Assembly: GCA_963755025.1 (NCBI GenBank)
Contig: CAVWIH010000034.1
Location: forward strand, 64,001-128,000
Direction: 5' to 3'
DNA length: 64,000 nucleotides
From: an uncultured Actinomycetes bacterium
GTDB lineage: Bacteria; Actinomycetota; Thermoleophilia; UBA2241
The translations under genes were made by a program, and so were the position numbers. Position 1 is the first letter of the stretch, and each line of letters begins with the position of its first letter. Under the pieces are notes generated by a model. That model was not told where the DNA came from and searched no databases. It saw nothing but the letters and a program-made list of their open reading frames with translations. Positions 26,322 to 43,406 of this stretch are shown one piece after another.

Positions 26322-26398
26322 GGGCGACTAGCTCAGTTGCGTAGAGCGCCAGCTCGACAAGCTGGAGGTCGTTGGTTCAATTCCAACGTCGCCCACCA
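26322..26398 (+). tRNA. tRNA-Val(GAC)
   Basis: GGGCGAC/GTCGCCC acceptor stem, encoded CCA, anticodon arm CCAGC-TCGACAA-GCTGG, GGTTCAATTCC T-arm; TGcTATAAT promoter at 26301-26309. Confidence 0.9.
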
Positions 26399-34508: not shown

Positions 34509-36846
34509 ATGAAGCGAACGGCACGAAGGATCGGAAGAGCTGAGAGGCGCGAGGGGCGGTCGTTCACCGAACGCCTGGCGCGCGCCAGCGCCACCCACCC
34601 GTGGCGCACCATCACGGCCTGGCTTGCGCTGGTCGTGGTGGCGGTCGCCTCGATGGGCGCCCTGCTCTCAAGCGGCATCACCTCGAACACGGAGTTTCGC
34701 GGCACCAAGCCCGAGAGCGTGATCGGCCAGAAGCTGATCGAGGACCGCCTCACCGGCCCCGAGCGCATGACCGACTTCGTGATCGTCAGGTCGGCCACGC
34801 TCAAGGCCGGCGACCCCGCCTTCCGCAGCTATGTCGAGGGCATCGCCTCGCGCATCTCCGACCTGGGCCCCGCCGTCGTGCAGAACGTCACGACGCTCTA
34901 CACCACGCACGATGCGACGCTGCGCTCCCGCGATGGGCACGCGACGCTCATTCCCGTGGTCATGGCCGGTGACCAGGATACCGCCATGAAGAACGTCGCC
35001 AAGCTGCACGCCGTCGTGCTGGCGAGCGCCGGCCCCGGATTCACGCTCGCCCAGACCGGCGACGCCAGCCTCGAACCAGATGATCACCCAGGTGGCCAAG
35101 AGCGACCTCGAGCGGGCCGAGATCTTCGGCGTGCCCGCCGCGCTCGTCGTGCTGGTCATCGTGTTCGGCGCGCTGGTGGCGGCCGGCCTGCCGCTGCTGC
35201 TCAGCATCGTCAGCATCGTGCTGGCGCTCACCATCACCGGGCTCATCGGCCAGATCTACCCCATGAACACCTTCGTGCTCAACATCCTCACGATGATGGG
35301 CCTGGCGGTGGGCATCGACTACACGCTGTTCGTGATCAGCCGCTACCGCGAGGAGCGCGCCCGCGGCCTGGCCAAGGTCGACGCCATCGCGGCCACCGGC
35401 GCCACCGCCAACCGCGCCATCTTCTTCAGCGGCATGACCGTCTTTCTGGCCATGCTCGGCATGGTCATCGTGCCGCTCGACGTCACCATCAGCATGGGGC
35501 TGGGCGTCATGCTGGTCGTCTTCACCACGCTGCTCACCACGCTGATGCTGCTGCCGGCGCTGCTCGGCCTGCTGGGCGACCGCGTGAACGCCCTGCGCGT
35601 GCCGGTCTTCGGGCGCCTGGCCATGAACCGCGCACGGGGCCGGTCGGGCCTGTTCGAGCGGCTGGCGCACAGCATCATGCGCCGTCCGGTCGTCTGGCTG
35701 ACCGTCGCCGTCGTCGCGCTGCTCGCCCTGGCCGCGCCGGTGCTCGCCATGAAGACCGGCAACACCAACATGACGGCGCGCTACCTGCCCGCCGACCAGT
35801 ACTCCAAGCAGGGCTGGGACCTGCTCGGCCGCGAGTTCTCGCTGGGCAAGGCCAACCCGCTGCAGATCGTGATCGACGGGCCGGCCGCGGCGCCCGGGGT
35901 GAAGCACGGCGTGGCGCGCCTCGAAGCGGCCCTGCGCAGCGACGGCCGCTTCGGCCCCGCGCAGACGGTCGTCGACAAGGCGGGCGACCTGACGCTCGTG
36001 ACCACCAGCCTCACCGGCGACCCGGCAGGCGACGCCACGCAGGCGCTCGTGAAGCACGTGCGCACGGCCCTCGTGCCGGCCGCCTTCGCCGGCGCGCCGG
36101 CGAAGGTCTACGTCTCGGGTAACACCGCCTTCGTCGTCGACTACCTGGCCTTCTTCCACCGCTGGCTGCCGATCGCCCTGACCGTGGTGCTCTCGCTGTC
36201 GTTCGTGCTGCTGCTCGTGGCCTTCCGCTCCATCGTCATCCCGGCCAAGGCGATCGCCATGAACCTGCTCTCGGTGGGCGCTTCGTACGGCCTCATGGTG
36301 CTCGTCTTTCAGAAGGGCGTCGGCGCGCACCTGCTCGGACTGACCCGCGTCGACACGATCGAGGCGTGGGTGCCGCTGTTCCTCTTCAGCCTGCTGTTCG
36401 GCCTCTCGATGGACTACCAGGTCTTTCTGCTCAGCCGTATCAAGGAGCGTTTCGACCACACAGGCGACACCCGCGAGGCGGTGGCCTACGGCGTCGGGCG
36501 CACGGCCAGCATCATCACCGGCGCCGCCGCCATCATGGTCTGCGTCTTTGCCGGCATGGCCGGCGGCCAGCTCGTCATGTTCCAGCAGATGGGCTTCGGC
36601 CTCGCGGTCGCGGTGCTGATCGACGCCACGGTGGTGCGCACCATCATCGTGCCGGCCGCCATGGAGCTGCTCGGCGACTGGAACTGGTACCTGCCGCGCT
36701 GGCTCGAGTGGCTGCCCAACGTGAGCGTCGAGGGTCGGGCCGGAGAGCCGGCGCCACGCGCCGAAGGCTCCGCCGGCGAGCCGGCGCCACACGCCGAGGA
36801 GCGCCTGCTGCCCGGCCGCGGCACGGCGGCGGCCGCCGGCCGGTAA
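34509..36846 (+). CDS. MMPL (RND) family transporter (apparent frameshift near 35075)
   Basis: GLAVGIDY.LF.ISRYREE, FGLSMDYQVFLLSRIKE, DATVVR, WNWYLPRWL. The N-terminus is in a different frame. Confidence 0.88.
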
Positions 36847-38776: not shown

Positions 38777-38865
38777 GGCGACCGCGACCGCCCACCCGCG
38801 AACGCCGCGCGCCACTCAGGCGACCGCGACCGCCCACCCGCGAACGCCGCGCGCCCTCAGGCGAC
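38777..38865. repeat. ~42-bp tandem direct repeat between convergent genes
   Basis: GGCGACCGCGACCGCCCACCCGCGAACGCCGCGCGCC occurs at 38777 and 38819. Confidence 0.75.
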
Positions 38866-39966
38866 GTCGATGGTGAGCTGGCTCGCTCCGCCGCTCATGC
38901 GCACGTCGAAGCTGTTCTGAGCCGTGCCGTAGTCGGGCGACTCTATGCGGGCGCCGCGGCCCATCGAGGCCTGCTCCTTGCCGTCGAAGACGAGCTGGCT
39001 GGCGCCGCCCGTGACCTGGGCGGCCAGGGCGCAGCCGGCCGGCCTGTGCAGCCGCACGTTGCTGGCGCCGCCCGAGACGCGCACCGGCACGGCGCCCACG
39101 GCGAGCGGCAGCCAGATCTCGACGTCGCTGGCCCCGCCGCCCACCTCGAGCGAGCGCAGCGTGAGACCGCGCAGATCGCAGACGAGCTTCCACATGCCGC
39201 CCTTCATGGAGATCTCCCAGGGCACGGCGGGGTTCAGCGCGATGGTCGACTTGGCCACCCGCCAGTCGAAGGGCAGCAGGTGCCGCCGGTGACCTATCGT
39301 CACCGTGCCGCCGTCGACGCTGATCTCGGGCACGCTGCCCTTGAACTCGCCGCGGTAGAGGGTGGTCAGCGAGGCGTCGACGCCGATCTTCGCCTTGGCG
39401 GCGCCCTTGATGAACTCGAGCCTGCCGAGCGACACGCCGTTGAGCGGGGCCGTGAACTGTCCGTCCGCCGGCGGGGCGGTGGCCGCCGTGTCGGGGGCGG
39501 GCGGCGGGGGAGAGGCGATGCCGCGCAGCAGCTCCTCGTAGAACTCGCGGATGCCGTGCAGGTAGTCGCGGATGACGGCCACGGCGCCGGGCTCGATCTG
39601 CTCGAGCTGCGCGCGGCCGGCGAGCTCGACCTCGCCGTACACGCGCGCCCCCAGCTCGCGGGTGGCGACGGTCGAGGTGACCATCACGCGGCGCCGGTCG
39701 CTGGGGTCGGCGACGCGGTTGGCGTAGCCGTTGCGCTCCATGCGGTCGAGCACGGTGGTGATGGCGCCCGGGGTGAGGCCGCTCTCTTCGGCAAGCTCGC
39801 CGGCGGTCACGCGGCCGCGGCGGTAGAGGATGCCGATGCAGCGCAGGTCGGTGCGGTTCAGGCCGGATTGCGCGGCGACCGCCTCGTCCAAGCGGTCGGC
39901 GGTGCGGCGCAGCTCGCCGAGCTCCGTGCCTACTTCGTCGATCAATCTGTCGTGGTCGTCTGCCAT
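38857..39966 (-). CDS. MarR-family regulator fused to a C-terminal beta-repeat (DUF4097/LiaF-like) domain
   Basis: LNRTDLRC...TAGELA...LTPGAITTVLDR.E...DRR; C-terminal repeats of GGAS. Confidence 0.8.
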   Translation of the reverse strand: MADDHDRLIDEVGTELGELRRTADRLDEAVAAQSGLNRTDLRCIGILYRRGRVTAGELAEESGLTPGAITTVLDRMERNGYANRVADPSDRRRVMVTSTVATRELGARVYGEVELAGRAQLEQIEPGAVAVIRDYLHGIREFYEELLRGIASPPPPAPDTAATAPPADGQFTAPLNGVSLGRLEFIKGAAKAKIGVDASLTTLYRGEFKGSVPEISVDGGTVTIGHRRHLLPFDWRVAKSTIALNPAVPWEISMKGGMWKLVCDLRGLTLRSLEVGGGASDVEIWLPLAVGAVPVRVSGGASNVRLHRPAGCALAAQVTGGASQLVFDGKEQASMGRGARIESPDYGTAQNSFDVRMSGGASQLTIDVA

Positions 39967-40087
39967 GTCTCGCCTCGCTGCCGGAAAGAACTGCCGCACG
40001 CGCGGCCTTCGTGAGCTTTCCTGATCTCGTCGTGCCGGTGAGCTAGTTCGCCCGCCGACGGTTGTTTCCTTGCCAGATAATATACCA

Positions 40088-40102
40088 CAAACAAATTGTT
40101 TG
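40088..40102. promoter_or_regulatory. 7-1-7 inverted repeat, probable MarR operator
   Basis: CAAACAA-A-TTGTTTG in the AT-rich divergent promoter region. Confidence 0.6.
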
Positions 40103-40208
40103 ACACTCGAAATATCGTGGCAGTAAACTGCTGCTGTTCTGAAATGCCTCCACGGCGCGACACGCAAGCTCGCGACCCGACGAGGGCTCCGACAAGGCGG
40201 TAGTTTCC

Positions 40209-41189
40209 ATGACTGAGATGGCGATCGAGGCAACGGGCCTCGTGAAGACGTACCCCAAGGGGGTGAAGGCGCTCGCCGGAGTGAGCTTCGGCGTCGCCCC
40301 CGGCAGCGTGTTCGGCCTGGTCGGGCCCAACGGCGCCGGCAAGTCGACCACGGTGAAGATCCTGACGACCCTCTCGCGGCCCGACAGCGGCGCCGCCGAG
40401 GTGGCCGGCATCGACGTGCTGCGCCGCCCCGACGACGTGCGCCGCGCGATCGGCTGCGTCGCCCAGAAGTCGGGCGTCGACGTGCAGGCGACGGGGCGCG
40501 AGAACCTGCTGCTCCAGGGCCGCCTGTACGGCATGAGCGGGCGCGCGCTCGACCAGCGGGTCGAGGCCATGCTCGGCCGCTTCGGCCTGGCCGACGCGGC
40601 GCGCCGGGTCACGCGCACCTACTCGGGCGGCATGCAGCGCAAGCTCGACGTCGCCATGGGCCTGATCCATAGTCCCCGGGTCCTGTTCCTGGACGAGCCC
40701 ACGACCGGCCTCGACCCCGAGGCGCGGGCCGACATGTGGAGCGAGATCGAGCGGCTGGCCGACGAGGAAGGCCTCACCATCCTGCTCACCACGCACTACC
40801 TCGAAGAGGCCGACAGGCTGGCGCACAGCCTGGCGATCGTCGACCGGGGCAGGATCGTGGCGCACGGCGCCCCGGAGGACCTGAAGAGCGAGCTGCACGG
40901 CGACGCCGTGCACATCGAGCTCGACGCGGTCGAGACCAACGGTCACGTGGCCGCGGCGCTCGCCGACCTGGGCGACGTGCGCGACGTCGTCGTCGAGCAG
41001 GGCCGCCTGTTGCACGCGCGAGCCGACAACGGCGCCCGCGCCGTGCCCGTCATGCTGCAGGCCCTCGAGGCGCGCGGCGTGTCGGTCGTCGCCGTCACGG
41101 TCGCGCGCCCCTCGCTCGACGACGTCTATCTGAAGTACACAGGCCGCCGGTTCGAAGAGGCCGACGCGACCCCCGAGGTGACCCGATGA
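40209..41189 (+). CDS. DrrA-like ABC exporter ATP-binding protein
   Basis: GPNGAGKST, YSGGM, FLDEPTTGLDP, TTHYLEEAD. Confidence 0.92.
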   Translation: MTEMAIEATGLVKTYPKGVKALAGVSFGVAPGSVFGLVGPNGAGKSTTVKILTTLSRPDSGAAEVAGIDVLRRPDDVRRAIGCVAQKSGVDVQATGRENLLLQGRLYGMSGRALDQRVEAMLGRFGLADAARRVTRTYSGGMQRKLDVAMGLIHSPRVLFLDEPTTGLDPEARADMWSEIERLADEEGLTILLTTHYLEEADRLAHSLAIVDRGRIVAHGAPEDLKSELHGDAVHIELDAVETNGHVAAALADLGDVRDVVVEQGRLLHARADNGARAVPVMLQALEARGVSVVAVTVARPSLDDVYLKYTGRRFEEADATPEVTR

Positions 41190-41959
41190 CAGCCCTGCGA
41201 CACACGTACCATCTCACCGTCCGCCAGGTGCGCAACTTTCTGCGCCAGCCCTGGTTCGTGGCGCTCTCGCTGTTCCAGCCCATCATCTACCTGCTGCTCT
41301 TCGGCGCCCTGTTCAAGAAGGTCGTCGAGATCCCCGGGTTCAGCACCGACTCCTACGTCTCGTTCCTCACTCCCGGCATCGTCGTCATGAGCGCCATGTT
41401 CGCCGGTGGCTGGAGCGGCATGGGCCTGATCGACGACCTCGACCGCGGCGTCATGGACCGCTTTCTGGTGGCCCCCACGAGCCGCGGCGCGATCATGCTC
41501 GGCCGCGTCACGCCGCAGGTGCTCACGATCCTCATTCAGACGCTCATCATCGTGGGCCTGGCGCTGGCCGTGGGCGGGCGGTTCGGCGGCGGCGTGGCCG
41601 GCGCGGTCATGCTGATCGTCGTCTCGACCCTGCTGTCGATCGGCGTCGCGTCGTTGTCGAACGGCATCGCGCTGCTGCTGCGCAAGGAAGAGTCGGTGAT
41701 CGCCGCCGTCAACATGGTCCTGTTGCCGCTGATCTTCCTGTCGTCGGCCTTCCTGCAGCAGAACCTGGCGCCGCAGTGGATCCAGGACATCGCCCGCTAC
41801 AACCCGGCCGACTGGGCGATCGAGGCGGGCCGCACCGCCCTCTCGAGTAACGCCACGGCGCACACGGTGCTCACGCACACGCTCTACCTGGCCGTCTTTG
41901 CCGTGGTCTGCACGTTCCTCGCCACGCGCGCGTTCCGCTCCTACCAGAGCTCCGTCTGA
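41186..41959 (+). CDS. ABC-2 type (DrrB-like) permease
   Basis: Six TMs, QPIIYLLLFG, FLSSAF, NP motif; ATGA overlap. Confidence 0.9.
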   Translation: MTALRHTYHLTVRQVRNFLRQPWFVALSLFQPIIYLLLFGALFKKVVEIPGFSTDSYVSFLTPGIVVMSAMFAGGWSGMGLIDDLDRGVMDRFLVAPTSRGAIMLGRVTPQVLTILIQTLIIVGLALAVGGRFGGGVAGAVMLIVVSTLLSIGVASLSNGIALLLRKEESVIAAVNMVLLPLIFLSSAFLQQNLAPQWIQDIARYNPADWAIEAGRTALSSNATAHTVLTHTLYLAVFAVVCTFLATRAFRSYQSSV

Positions 41960-42054
41960 GCCGCGGGCCGGGCCGGCCGCGGCGCCCGGCGCCGCGGCCG
42001 GCCCGCCAACGGCGCCCAACGCTTGCCGCGTGGGGCCCGAGGGTATGATGCCGG

Positions 42055-42190
42055 CGAGCGAGAGCTCGGTCGTGTGCGGGATGAAGGTCTTCGGGTCGTA
42101 AACCGCTGTGGGGAGGTGACTCCTCCAAAGAAAGCTCCATGCTCGCGCGCAAGTGCGGGGGAGCTACCGCGCCGGCTTTCGCTCGTTTCG
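42055..42190 (+). ncRNA. Putative standalone structured RNA mimicking the 16S rRNA h16/h17/h18/h3 junction
   Basis: TATGAT -10 at 42044; h16-like GTGCGGGATGAAGGTCTTCGGGTCGTAAACCGCT; two GNRA-capped stems; 11-bp closing stem; downstream terminator. Confidence 0.7.
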
Positions 42191-42214
42191 CGCGGCCCTT
42201 CGGGGCCGCGTTTT
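42191..42214 (+). terminator. Intrinsic terminator
   Basis: CGCGGCCC-TTCG-GGGCCGCG followed by TTTTCGTT. Confidence 0.85.
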
Positions 42215-42238
42215 CGTTGGGGATTGCGGAACAGGCCG

Positions 42239-42325
42239 TTGCCCTCACAGCCCTGAACGGGTCGCTGAGCTCACAGTTTTGGGCAGTCCGCCGAGCTCAC
42301 GGCTTTGGGCAGGCCGCTGAAGCTC
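42239..42325. repeat. Three degenerate 26-bp tandem repeats
   Basis: TTGCCCTCACAGCCCTGAACGGGTCG / CTGAGCTCACAGTTTTGGGCAGTCCG / CCGAGCTCACGGCTTTGGGCAGGCCG. Confidence 0.55.
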
Positions 42326-42329
42326 CGGG

Positions 42330-43406
42330 CTAGAGCAAGCCGGTGAAGTTCCCGGTCCCCCAGGGTGAGGCCGCCACGGCGTCGGCCACGGCTATGGCGC
42401 TGGTGCCCGAGCGCAACGCGGCGAGGATGCCGCCGTAGTAGCCGTTGCGCAGCGTGGCGATGGTCGCGGTGAAGCCCTGCGCCCAGCTCACGTAGGCCTT
42501 GACGCCCACGGAGTTCATGGAGGTGGCGCCGGGCTCGGGCATGGTCGTGTCGAGGGGATTGTAGTGGGCCGTGTTGTGCCAGTTGCCGCCCTCAGCCATC
42601 TCCCAGGCGGTGATCGCGGCCGCGTTTTGCTGGGTGAGCGGCATGTTGAGCTGTTCGAGCAGCGCCCTGGCCCACGTGATGGGCGTGTAGCGGCCCGAGA
42701 GCGGCACCGACGAGACCATGCCCCCGCTGTGCGGGTTCTGCGCGGCCAGGATGCGCTGGATCTGGCGCGTGAACGCTTCGAGGATGGCGCGCCGCTGGGC
42801 GATCTTGTCGGACATCGCGAGGCGTTGCGCGTCGACCTGGTCCTGGGCGGCCTGCGACTCGCTGCGCTGGCCGGCGAGTGAATCGGCGAGGCGCGTGACC
42901 TGGGCGTTCAGGCGGGCGAGGTTCGCGGTGTCGCGCTGGCCCTGCTGGGTCAGGCGCTTGAAGAAGGTGACCTCGGTCTGCGCCTGGGTGATCGTGGCCG
43001 AGCCGGCCAGCACGTCGACGAACGAGAACGTGCCCATCTTGTACATGGCGGCGAGGCGCCCGCCCACCAGGGCGCTCTGCTGACTGAGGGCGTTCTGGGA
43101 CTGGGCGAGCTGCAGACGAGTCTGCGAGAGCTTCATGTTCACGGCGGTGAGGTTGGCGACGGCGGCGTTGTACTGTGCGCCGATCGTCTGCATCTGCGTT
43201 TCGAGGAGGGCCATCTGGCGGCGCTGACCGCGGGCCGCGGCTTCGAGGCCGTTGAGCGTGGTCGGGGTCTGCACGGCGATGATGGCGGTGGGCGAGGCGG
43301 CAGCCGGCCCCGGCACGAGGGCGGCGCAGCAGAGGGCGACGGCGGCGGCCGCCACGGCGGCCGCCGCCGTCGCCCGCACGAGTCGTTTGTACCGGCGCCG
43401 ATCCAT
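42330..43406 (-). CDS. Secreted PcsB/CwlO-like coiled-coil protein with probable lysozyme-like C-terminal domain
   Basis: Signal peptide, long coiled coil with the RLAAMYKMG..SFVDVL.GS motif, and C-terminal W..AEGG...NPL.TT...VKAY.SW..G. Confidence 0.7.
   Translation of the reverse strand: MDRRRYKRLVRATAAAAVAAAAVALCCAALVPGPAAASPTAIIAVQTPTTLNGLEAAARGQRRQMALLETQMQTIGAQYNAAVANLTAVNMKLSQTRLQLAQSQNALSQQSALVGGRLAAMYKMGTFSFVDVLAGSATITQAQTEVTFFKRLTQQGQRDTANLARLNAQVTRLADSLAGQRSESQAAQDQVDAQRLAMSDKIAQRRAILEAFTRQIQRILAAQNPHSGGMVSSVPLSGRYTPITWARALLEQLNMPLTQQNAAAITAWEMAEGGNWHNTAHYNPLDTTMPEPGATSMNSVGVKAYVSWAQGFTATIATLRNGYYGGILAALRSGTSAIAVADAVAASPWGTGNFTGLL

Follow-up and report, generated by a model that had tools for sequence, protein, structure and literature searches.

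A small RNA family derived from the uS4-binding junction of 16S rRNA in uncultured Thermoleophilia

Introduction

Why should a gap between two convergent genes, with no ribosomal-protein gene nearby, hold what looks like a miniature of the part of 16S ribosomal RNA (rRNA) that binds ribosomal protein uS4 (S4)? The question is raised by a stretch of 64,000 nucleotides (nt) from an uncultured Actinomycetes bacterium (Actinomycetota; Thermoleophilia; UBA2241; assembly GCA_963755025.1, contig CAVWIH010000034.1, positions 64,001 to 128,000), the whole of which we call the window. Within it, a gap of 370 nt between an ABC-2 permease gene (41186-41959, + strand) and a convergent gene of 358 codons that matches no Pfam family (42330-43406, - strand) hosts an element whose + strand folds with an energy of -90.7 kcal/mol (z -4.26; equalled by none of 200 shuffles), the - strand folding less stably (z -2.73). 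Here we show that this element belongs to a family of stand-alone small RNAs that is under selection and was born from the five-way junction of 16S rRNA. As to its role, the best reading in our judgment, to which we give an even chance, is that the RNA may act in trans as a decoy or holding RNA for uS4.

RNAs that imitate rRNA have so far been known as cis operators inside ribosomal-protein mRNAs. The Bacillus rpsD leader and the S4 leader families of Rfam are autoregulatory ribosomal-protein leaders. The element described here shares with the S4 leaders (of the Escherichia coli alpha operon and of Bacillus rpsD) the idea of an extraribosomal RNA resembling the protein's own rRNA site, but the leaders act in cis from the 5' untranslated region of an operon, whereas the mimic has no ribosomal-protein gene nearby. 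The alpha-operon S4 operator of E. coli, moreover, is a pseudoknot (PMC10931766), whereas the mimic is still arranged like the 16S site and shares much of its sequence. A separately encoded RNA mimic of the uS4 site has not been described before in the literature that we searched, and full-text searches found no free-standing rRNA-mimic RNA for S4. In the available text of a 2024 review, the extraribosomal roles of uS4 comprise repression of the alpha operon, antitermination of rrn transcription and a cross-link to PA2504, and an RNA sponge for uS4 is not mentioned (PMC10931766).

In what follows, positions are those of the window unless stated otherwise, and all parts of the element lie on the + strand. 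The E. coli 16S numbers used for the mimic were placed by alignment together with what we take to be the position of the helix-16 loop. Relatives were sought with two covariance models, R1 built from nine relatives and R2 from twenty, in 89 genomes of the family, 151 of the class and 151 of the phylum, and pairing was analysed in an alignment of 18 distinct copies. The genome to which the window belongs is referred to as G000, and other genomes are named only where they need to be told apart.

Architecture of the element

A single long closing helix holds the element together. Its 5' strand (42053-42074) is supported by the minimum-free-energy (MFE) fold, by the consensus helix and by alignment to the 16S of the genus, and its 3' strand (42166-42187) lies where 16S has the 3' strand of helix 3 (h3). 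The outer part of the 5' strand (42053-42065) includes the stem 42055-42065/42175-42185 that a preliminary description of this DNA had proposed and that we find in the sequence, and the inner part (42066-42069 and 42071-42074) aligns to the 3' strand of 16S helix 4 (h4). That description had also called h4 absent; a separate h4 is indeed missing, but an h4-like 3' strand is retained and pairs with the strand in the h3 3' position, so that h3 and h4 are merged into one helix.

Enclosed by this helix are, in order, the junction letters G-T-G (42074-42076), equivalents of 16S 404-406; a full-length, 31-nt mimic of helix 16 (h16; 42076-42106, delimited by the Rfam alignment to small-subunit (SSU) rRNA), made up of a lower stem GCGG/CCGC, an internal loop, an upper stem and a TTCG loop; a T equivalent to 16S U437 (42107), which is invariant in 18/18 copies and is the same letter in the 16S of the family; and a stub of helix 17 (h17; 42109-42127) of 6-7 base pairs (bp) with a GTGA loop, equal to the base of the real h17. 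A purine-rich linker (42128-42133) follows, aligned to the h17-h18 linker of the SSU model and reading AAAGAAA, AGAGAAA or GGAGAAT across the copies, and leads into the mimic of helix 18 (h18; 42133-42165), which is supported by the MFE fold and by pairing across copies. The latter consists of a lower stem of 5-6 bp, a 5' bulge of 3 nt, an upper stem of 7 bp and a GCAA loop, and it is without the 530 loop and its pseudoknot. The three hairpins are thus those proposed at the outset, with h17 and h18 shortened and capped by GTGA and GCAA and the 530 loop gone.

Origin from 16S rRNA

Searched against Rfam with E-value thresholds, the element matches best to bacterial SSU rRNA (SSU_rRNA_bacteria, RF00177), model positions 401-535 aligning to 42074-42164 with 18.1 bits and an E-value of 0.0035; the match covers part of the model only and does not reach the RF00177 gathering score of 50 bits. 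The alignment reproduces the order h16, h17, linker, h18 and closing strand, with 33 model positions of h17 reduced to 4 nt and 35 of h18 to 20 nt. Such a partial SSU match, with no other family fitting, is what the preliminary description had predicted. At gathering thresholds the sole Rfam match of the whole window is a tRNA (26322-26395), with none at the locus of the RNA, and neither the S4 leaders nor Alpha_RBS are among the seven matches found in 41900-42400 at E-values up to 10. The other weak matches (PhotoRC-I, Atu_C8 and ryfA among them) were rejected as chance, covering the terminator hairpin only or having E-values above 0.3. Sequence and structure homology to SSU rRNA extends over model positions 401-535, whereas the RNA is about 135 nt long compared with about 1500 and has a promoter-like motif and a terminator of its own.

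The family models lead back to the same place. Matches to R1 and R2 are of two kinds, full-length matches of 85-157 bits, which are members of the RNA family, and matches of 27-43 bits, which are real 16S genes wherever they were checked. This was so for 31/31 loci and again for 14/14; among the latter, the 515F site is present in 12, truncated away at a contig end in one and altered in one. The checked loci make up part of the low-scoring matches at phylum level. In addition, the copies of genomes G021 and G081 retain GGCTAACTACGTG of the real h18 and contain an 18-nt run that is identical to h18 of the family's 16S, with a small hairpin in place of the 530 loop. Because the SSU model matches the RNA, the family models match only 16S besides, and the 18-nt run of h18 has been kept, we conclude that the RNA is derived from the h16-h17-h18 region of 16S rRNA.

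The derivation is not recent. The 34-mer containing the h16 mimic had been called nearly identical to 16S helix 16, which holds for other lineages: 31-32 of its 34 positions agree with the 16S of a Planctomycetota metagenome-assembled genome (MAG), of a Longimicrobiaceae MAG and of members of two further families in the class, with 32/34 in a class relative. It does not hold for the family itself, where 27/34 positions agree in eight of the nine 16S sequences compared and 26/34 in one. The host MAG is 84% complete, with a single copy of the RNA and no assembled 16S; the real 16S genes of its genus are intact and differ from the RNA in helix 16. The notion that the mimic copies the organism's own helix 16 accordingly fails, on the 27/34 identity and on a different lower stem. 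The TGT after helix 16 and the base of h17, for their part, resemble the 16S of the class. Since its helix 16 differs from that of the family's present 16S, the mimic is not a recent copy of it; we infer that it arose long ago and preserves an ancestral helix 16, the 16S of the family having since changed by compensatory substitution. The RNA would thus be a rare case of a functional small RNA born from a fragment of an rRNA gene.

Conservation of structure and sequence

Across the 18 copies, standard pairs occupy 95.9% of the cells of the proposed structure, compared with 44-55% when the partners are slid, and 12 pairs have changed on both sides, compared with 1-4 in the slid controls; none of 500 shuffles matches these values. 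The excess of two-sided changes over the controls is our reason for concluding that the structure is under selection, and it bears out the earlier suggestion that pairing is kept despite changes of sequence. The compensatory changes are spread over the element: four lie in the closing helix (17 consensus pairs, 95.3% of cells paired), three in the h17 stub (92.7%; mostly contributed by the G081 copy), four in the lower stem of h18, that is in four of its five pairs (95.6%), and one in the upper stem of h18. The h18 of the relatives comes in three variants, and since h18 lengths differ by numbers not divisible by three, the element is not a coding region.

The inner part of the closing helix is ambiguous in its register. 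A short helix CGGT/ACCG, proposed in the preliminary description, does pair in 81.7% of cells, but a rival register, in which 42066-42069 pairs with 42172-42175 and 42071-42074 with 42168-42171, belongs to the helix that is paired in 95.3%.

Helix 16 behaves differently from the other parts in that its sequence is conserved. The lower stem is invariant in 18/18 copies, and of the nine positions of the 34-mer that vary, eight lie in or beside the upper stem and loop. This near-invariance points to a helix 16 that is read in a sequence-specific manner.

Promoter-like region, terminator and transcript

The closing helix is preceded by a promoter-like -10 region, GGGTATGAT (42041-42049). A TATGAT box had been proposed here and is present (42044-42049), but what is conserved is GGGTAY rather than a sigma-70 box: GGGTA occurs in 18/18 copies, followed by T in 14, C in three and G in one, while the last base of TATGAT is T in eight, C in six, A in two and G in two. 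GGGTA lies 32-36 nt 5' of the start of helix 16 in all copies, and a sigma-70 promoter scan of 41900-42400 found none. The motif fits GGG(T/A)A, the -10 element of SigB/SigF-type promoters. In Bacillus subtilis the SigB consensus is GTTTAA-N12-14-GGG(A/T)A(A/T), and SigB homologues of Streptomyces recognise a -10 element with an invariant GGG and an A at position 5, together with a weak -35 element that for some of these homologues is only GNNT (PMC8346170); the SigF consensus of Mycobacterium smegmatis is GTTT-N14-19-GGGTA (PMC4694148). G000 encodes a sigma factor of the SigB/F/G subfamily (296.5 bits, NCBIfam cut-off 234.35). On both strands of this genome GGGTAT occurs 291 times, about threefold more rarely than the approximately 925 expected from base composition, and G[GT]TT-N14-17-GGGTAY is found at 15 sites. 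We consider GGGTAY a candidate -10 element of SigB/SigF type, and the assignment to this sigma factor a lead.

Immediately 5' of GGGTAT, the segment 42007-42040 (+) contains a conserved AACGG motif and, after it, an inverted repeat able to form a hairpin, which we name P0. NAACG lies 34-35 nt 5' of GGGTA in 14/18 copies, at exactly 34 nt in 13 of them, and P0 folds in every copy, with energies from -12.7 to -36.0 kcal/mol. Held in one fixed register, P0 is paired in 69.2% of cells, compared with 39-47% when slid; RNAalifold returned no consensus structure for this upstream hairpin. The AACGG/P0 unit moves with the RNA and not with the upstream gene, and possible roles for P0 are those of an insulating terminator, an operator or the 5' part of a longer RNA.

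At the 3' end, the U-tailed UUCG terminator of the preliminary description is present as an intrinsic-terminator-like hairpin of 9 bp with a TTCG loop (42190-42211) and a T run extending to 42214 (+), and a terminator scan of 41900-42400 returned this as its only site (one found, 0.4 expected). The hairpin is shared by the copy in the window and those of G002 and G004, that is by 2/17 other copies; in most of the others the closing helix is followed only by a T- or pyrimidine-rich tail. The spacer that separates the terminator from the end of the convergent gene's reading frame also contains a tandem repeat (42263-42325; a 26-nt unit repeated 2.4 times with 83% matches), which was not seen in the shorter spacers of the relatives.

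Parts of the stretch occur, as contigs only, in two metatranscriptome runs from wetland (shares 0.24 and 0.14). A contig of 183 nt covers 42041-42174 with two differences and has adapter at both ends, and one of 151 nt covers 42067-42213 with eight differences. The flanking genes are present at similar depth, and several other contigs are real 16S matching helix 16 only. Contigs of this kind show neither level, strand nor ends, and we have counted them neither for nor against expression; the single point taken from them is that one contig starts upstream of GGGTAT.

Distribution and loss

Full-length copies, as detected with the covariance models, are confined to one family (f1), in which 10/89 genomes of three genera have them: 8/12 genomes of the host's own genus (g1), 1/1 of genus g11 and 1/54 of genus g10, with 0/22 in the eight other genera. 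The searches found 0/125 in other genomes of the class and 0/150 in the phylum sample, and a search at order level, which comprised the same 89 genomes as the family search, added nothing. A scan of 185,579 species genomes for the exact pattern gave 38 stretches, of which eight are known family members, four are real 16S and 26 are chance-like, the latter having no match to R1. The corresponding metagenome scan gave 31, comprising 10 family members, two of them identical to known copies, 16 stretches without a model match and five typed as 16S by scores like those of checked Planctomycetota 16S rather than individually. The expectation of homologs in related genomes and MAGs is thus borne out by 10/89 family genomes and 10 metagenome contigs, the carriers being uncultured bacteria assigned to Actinomycetes, Thermoleophilia or Actinomycetota.

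The RNA has also been lost. It is missing from the syntenic site in G001, G005 and G007, and R1 run unfiltered over the loci of non-carriers gave nothing above 15.6 bits. At the G007 site the body of the RNA is gone, whereas the closing helix still has its 3' strand and the sequence just upstream is in place, which identifies the loss in this genome as a deletion. The same locus (L143, G007:C43; ~1363-1480) has an unrelated insert of about 230 nt slightly upstream of the deleted body.

Narrow distribution and repeated loss, like the low Rfam score, are what a decaying, functionless fragment of an rRNA gene would display. We nevertheless hold this explanation to be very improbable: decay does not account for compensatory changes in the closing helix and h18, for deleted parts replaced by tidy caps, for a promoter-like motif conserved at fixed spacing or for retention in three genera and two genomic contexts, and a helix 16 unlike that of the family's present 16S means that no recent copy is at hand.

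Genomic context

The RNA is not a ribosomal-protein leader, in agreement with the preliminary description. Its flanks are the ABC-2 permease gene and the convergent gene, neither its strand nor its surroundings contain a ribosomal-protein gene, and rpsD, which encodes a uS4 of 206 residues, is single-copy and lies on another contig (C2) within an rpsM-rpsK-rpsD-rpoA cluster in which R1 finds no match. Across loci, the RNA is followed at a distance of 12-133 nt by the end of an oppositely oriented homologue of the 358-codon gene in 15/19 cases by tblastn and in a 16th by eye, and the upstream gene differs. In G021 a hemerythrin gene stands between the RNA and the convergent gene. The G081 copy is flanked by a methyltransferase gene, which is divergent, and by a HAD hydrolase gene, which is convergent, and no gene follows it on its own strand. 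Occurrence in two unrelated contexts without a downstream gene on its strand argues for the RNA being an independent gene. No candidate partner gene travels with it across both contexts.

The close association with the convergent gene does suggest another possibility, namely that there is no independent trans-acting gene and that the element is either the structured 3' end of an upstream transcript or a cis element for the convergent gene, such as a bidirectional terminator, an insulator or an antisense partner of the 358-codon gene, whose stop codon is so near. Besides this tight adjacency, the pyrimidine-rich tail after the closing helix would suit such a role, and P0 together with an RNA-library contig that starts before GGGTAT would allow a longer transcript. 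We regard this explanation as distinctly unlikely, as the G081 copy has an unrelated context with a divergent upstream gene, the hemerythrin gene parts the RNA from the convergent gene in G021, and the GGGTAY unit stays with the RNA while the upstream gene varies; a terminator or antisense role, furthermore, would leave a 16S-like junction with an invariant helix 16 unexplained.

Comparison with the uS4 binding site

The uS4 site in 16S rRNA is a five-way junction of h3, h4, h16, h17 and h18, from which minimal '5WJ' RNAs have been engineered (Bellur and Woodson, 2009; PMC2665224). The mimic shares with the 16S junction and with these RNAs the order h16, h17, linker, h18 and closing strand, a complete helix 16 and the letters at 404-406 and 437, and its h17 and h18 are shortened and capped; it differs from them in being a natural, separately encoded gene. 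Its shortening of h17 and h18 can be likened to the engineered truncations that still bound S4.

In several respects the mimic agrees with the in vitro results of that study, which used S4 of Geobacillus (PMC2665224). Distal h17 and the 530 loop are dispensable for S4 binding, and these are the parts missing from the mimic. Truncation of helix 16 is disastrous for binding, and the mimic keeps helix 16 complete with its internal loop. Single substitutions at 404, 405, 406 or 437, all of them contacts of S4, bring binding down to the detection threshold, and the equivalents of these letters (42074-42076 and 42107) match the family 16S in 17/18 copies, the sole variation being at the 405 equivalent (T in 17, G in one). 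According to the same paper, S16 is associated with helices 15 and 17, and S12 with the face of h18 on the other side; the regions tied to these two proteins are reduced or absent in the mimic.

Proposed function

Taken together, these features suggest a small RNA with a transcript of its own, some 135-165 nt in length, derived from the junction of the 16S 5' domain and kept by selection in one family. It would offer uS4 a helix 16 in full, the letters of the junction by which uS4 recognises its site, and stubs of h17 and h18, all held by one long helix. We infer that free uS4 binds this RNA as it binds nascent 16S and that it does so in trans. With distal h17 and the 530 loop missing, and with them the regions tied to S16 and S12, the complex would stall, neither S16 nor S12 being recruited, and the RNA would be a dead end that holds uS4 or diverts it as a decoy. 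Less uS4 would then be left to nucleate 30S assembly, to take part in rRNA antitermination and to exert any repression of its own operon. The invariant GGGTAY upstream suggests transcription driven by a stress sigma factor of SigB/SigF type, such that the RNA would be made when growth slows, with the -10-like motif and the terminator-like hairpin as its presumed boundaries. That the RNA might be the first natural trans-acting sponge for a ribosomal protein, induced by stress and capturing uS4 in a dead-end complex, is an attractive proposal to which we would give somewhat less than an even chance.

The proposed logic has precedents with other proteins. 6S RNA imitates an open promoter and thereby holds RNA polymerase, and CsrB and RsmZ hold CsrA. 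Common to these RNAs and the mimic would be a stable small RNA that imitates a target and titrates an abundant protein, possibly during slow growth; the protein and the RNA are different ones, and for the mimic the binding of uS4 is only predicted. If the proposal is true, such a sponge would slow down or buffer the formation of 30S subunits, rRNA antitermination and the feedback on the alpha operon, much as 6S RNA handles RNA polymerase, and a separate, conserved miniature uS4 site would represent a new layer in the control of ribosome assembly, acting by titration of a protein that nucleates the 30S subunit. A sponge RNA for any ribosomal protein is known neither from the literature searched nor from the available text of the 2024 review (PMC10931766). 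The mimic is also a natural experiment on uS4 recognition, in that distal h17 and the 530 loop, which proved dispensable in mutagenesis, have been removed, and yet h3 and h4 are fused; as the RNA is short and well defined, the idea is directly testable.

Several observations weigh against a uS4 decoy. Where 16S has h3 and h4, both required in vitro (deletion of either reduces S4 binding more than 300-fold; PMC2665224), the mimic has one closing helix. Positions 508-512 contact S4, and an A509C/A510C double mutation abolished binding (PMC2665224), but the bulge letters equivalent to A509/A510 are kept in 2/18 copies only (G021 and G081), the bulge of h18 being rebuilt in the other 16/18 or shortened to 3 nt, which is the case in most copies as compared with 6 nt in 16S. 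The lower stem of helix 16 is GAGC/GCTC in the 23 family 16S sequences read and GCGG/CCGC in the mimic, and the invariance of helix 16 may come in part from the closeness of the genomes. Single-sequence MFE folds contain the full helix 16 in 10/18 copies only; in the other eight the 5' strand of this helix has a different partner, which in several copies is a CCCGC stretch after h18 (42076-42080 with 42166-42171 in the window, equivalent places in the relatives). This pairing may be an artefact of G+C-richness or a real alternative state. As for transcription, no conserved -35 element (GTTT, GGTT or GCTT at 14-19 nt) was found in the 18 copies, three of which have a GTTT-like sequence (GCTT or GGTT, 16-17 nt off) and 15 none, and one RNA-library contig starts about 11 nt 5' of GGGTAT, which does not fit a start after the motif unless it reflects read-through or DNA in the library. 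Finally, the RNA is dispensable, as its absence from syntenic sites within its own genus demonstrates: it is missing in 4/12 genomes of that genus and in 53/54 of g10.

Some of these points would be expected if the RNA were a decoy or platform for a different factor that reads this part of the 16S 5' domain, for instance an assembly factor or RNA helicase at the junction, another S4-domain protein, or a toxin or nuclease directed at helix 16. The near-invariance of helix 16 speaks of sequence-specific recognition without naming the reader, separate h3 and h4 and the A509/A510 equivalents, needed for S4 in vitro, are missing in most copies, and three more S4-domain proteins are encoded in the genome. 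The known modification sites of this region of 16S, on the other hand, presumably all lie in the 530 loop, which is deleted in the mimic, and no candidate partner gene accompanies the RNA in its two contexts. uS4, moreover, is the only protein for which this junction is documented as the primary site in the accessible text of the sources consulted (PMC2665224, PMC10931766). On balance we think a factor other than uS4 rather improbable, though it is the alternative to be taken most seriously, and retain a decoy or holding RNA for uS4 as the preferred reading.

Neighbouring genes and other features of the window

The hemerythrin gene of the G021 locus (L085, 3929-5393) encodes two domains and lies 3' of the RNA on the same strand. 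By eye, a look-alike hemerythrin gene stands beside the convergent gene in loci L142 (G005) and L144 (G001), both from genomes without the RNA, and a hemerythrin gene is included in the table of the M. smegmatis SigF regulon (PMC4694148).

Inspected by eye, the product of the convergent 358-codon gene starts with a hydrophobic N-terminus, continues with a long middle part resembling a coiled coil and closes with a conserved C-terminal domain that ends in GNF(T/S)GLL. The gene has 4-6 matches in each of four related genomes, and its product might belong to an undescribed family of secreted proteins of the cell envelope.

On the other side of the RNA, a MarR-type regulator upstream of the ABC genes (38857-40233, -) has a long C-terminal extension, and in three metagenome loci (L096, L112 and L114) a paralogue of this extension alone (about 40% identity) separates the ABC genes from the RNA. 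Further upstream (34509-36846, +), two long open reading frames overlap in different frames. The first (34509-36122) is transporter-like for about 190 residues and then of low complexity, and the second (35080-36846) carries on as transporter-like, so that the overlap may stem from a frameshift or an assembly error near 35080-35100.

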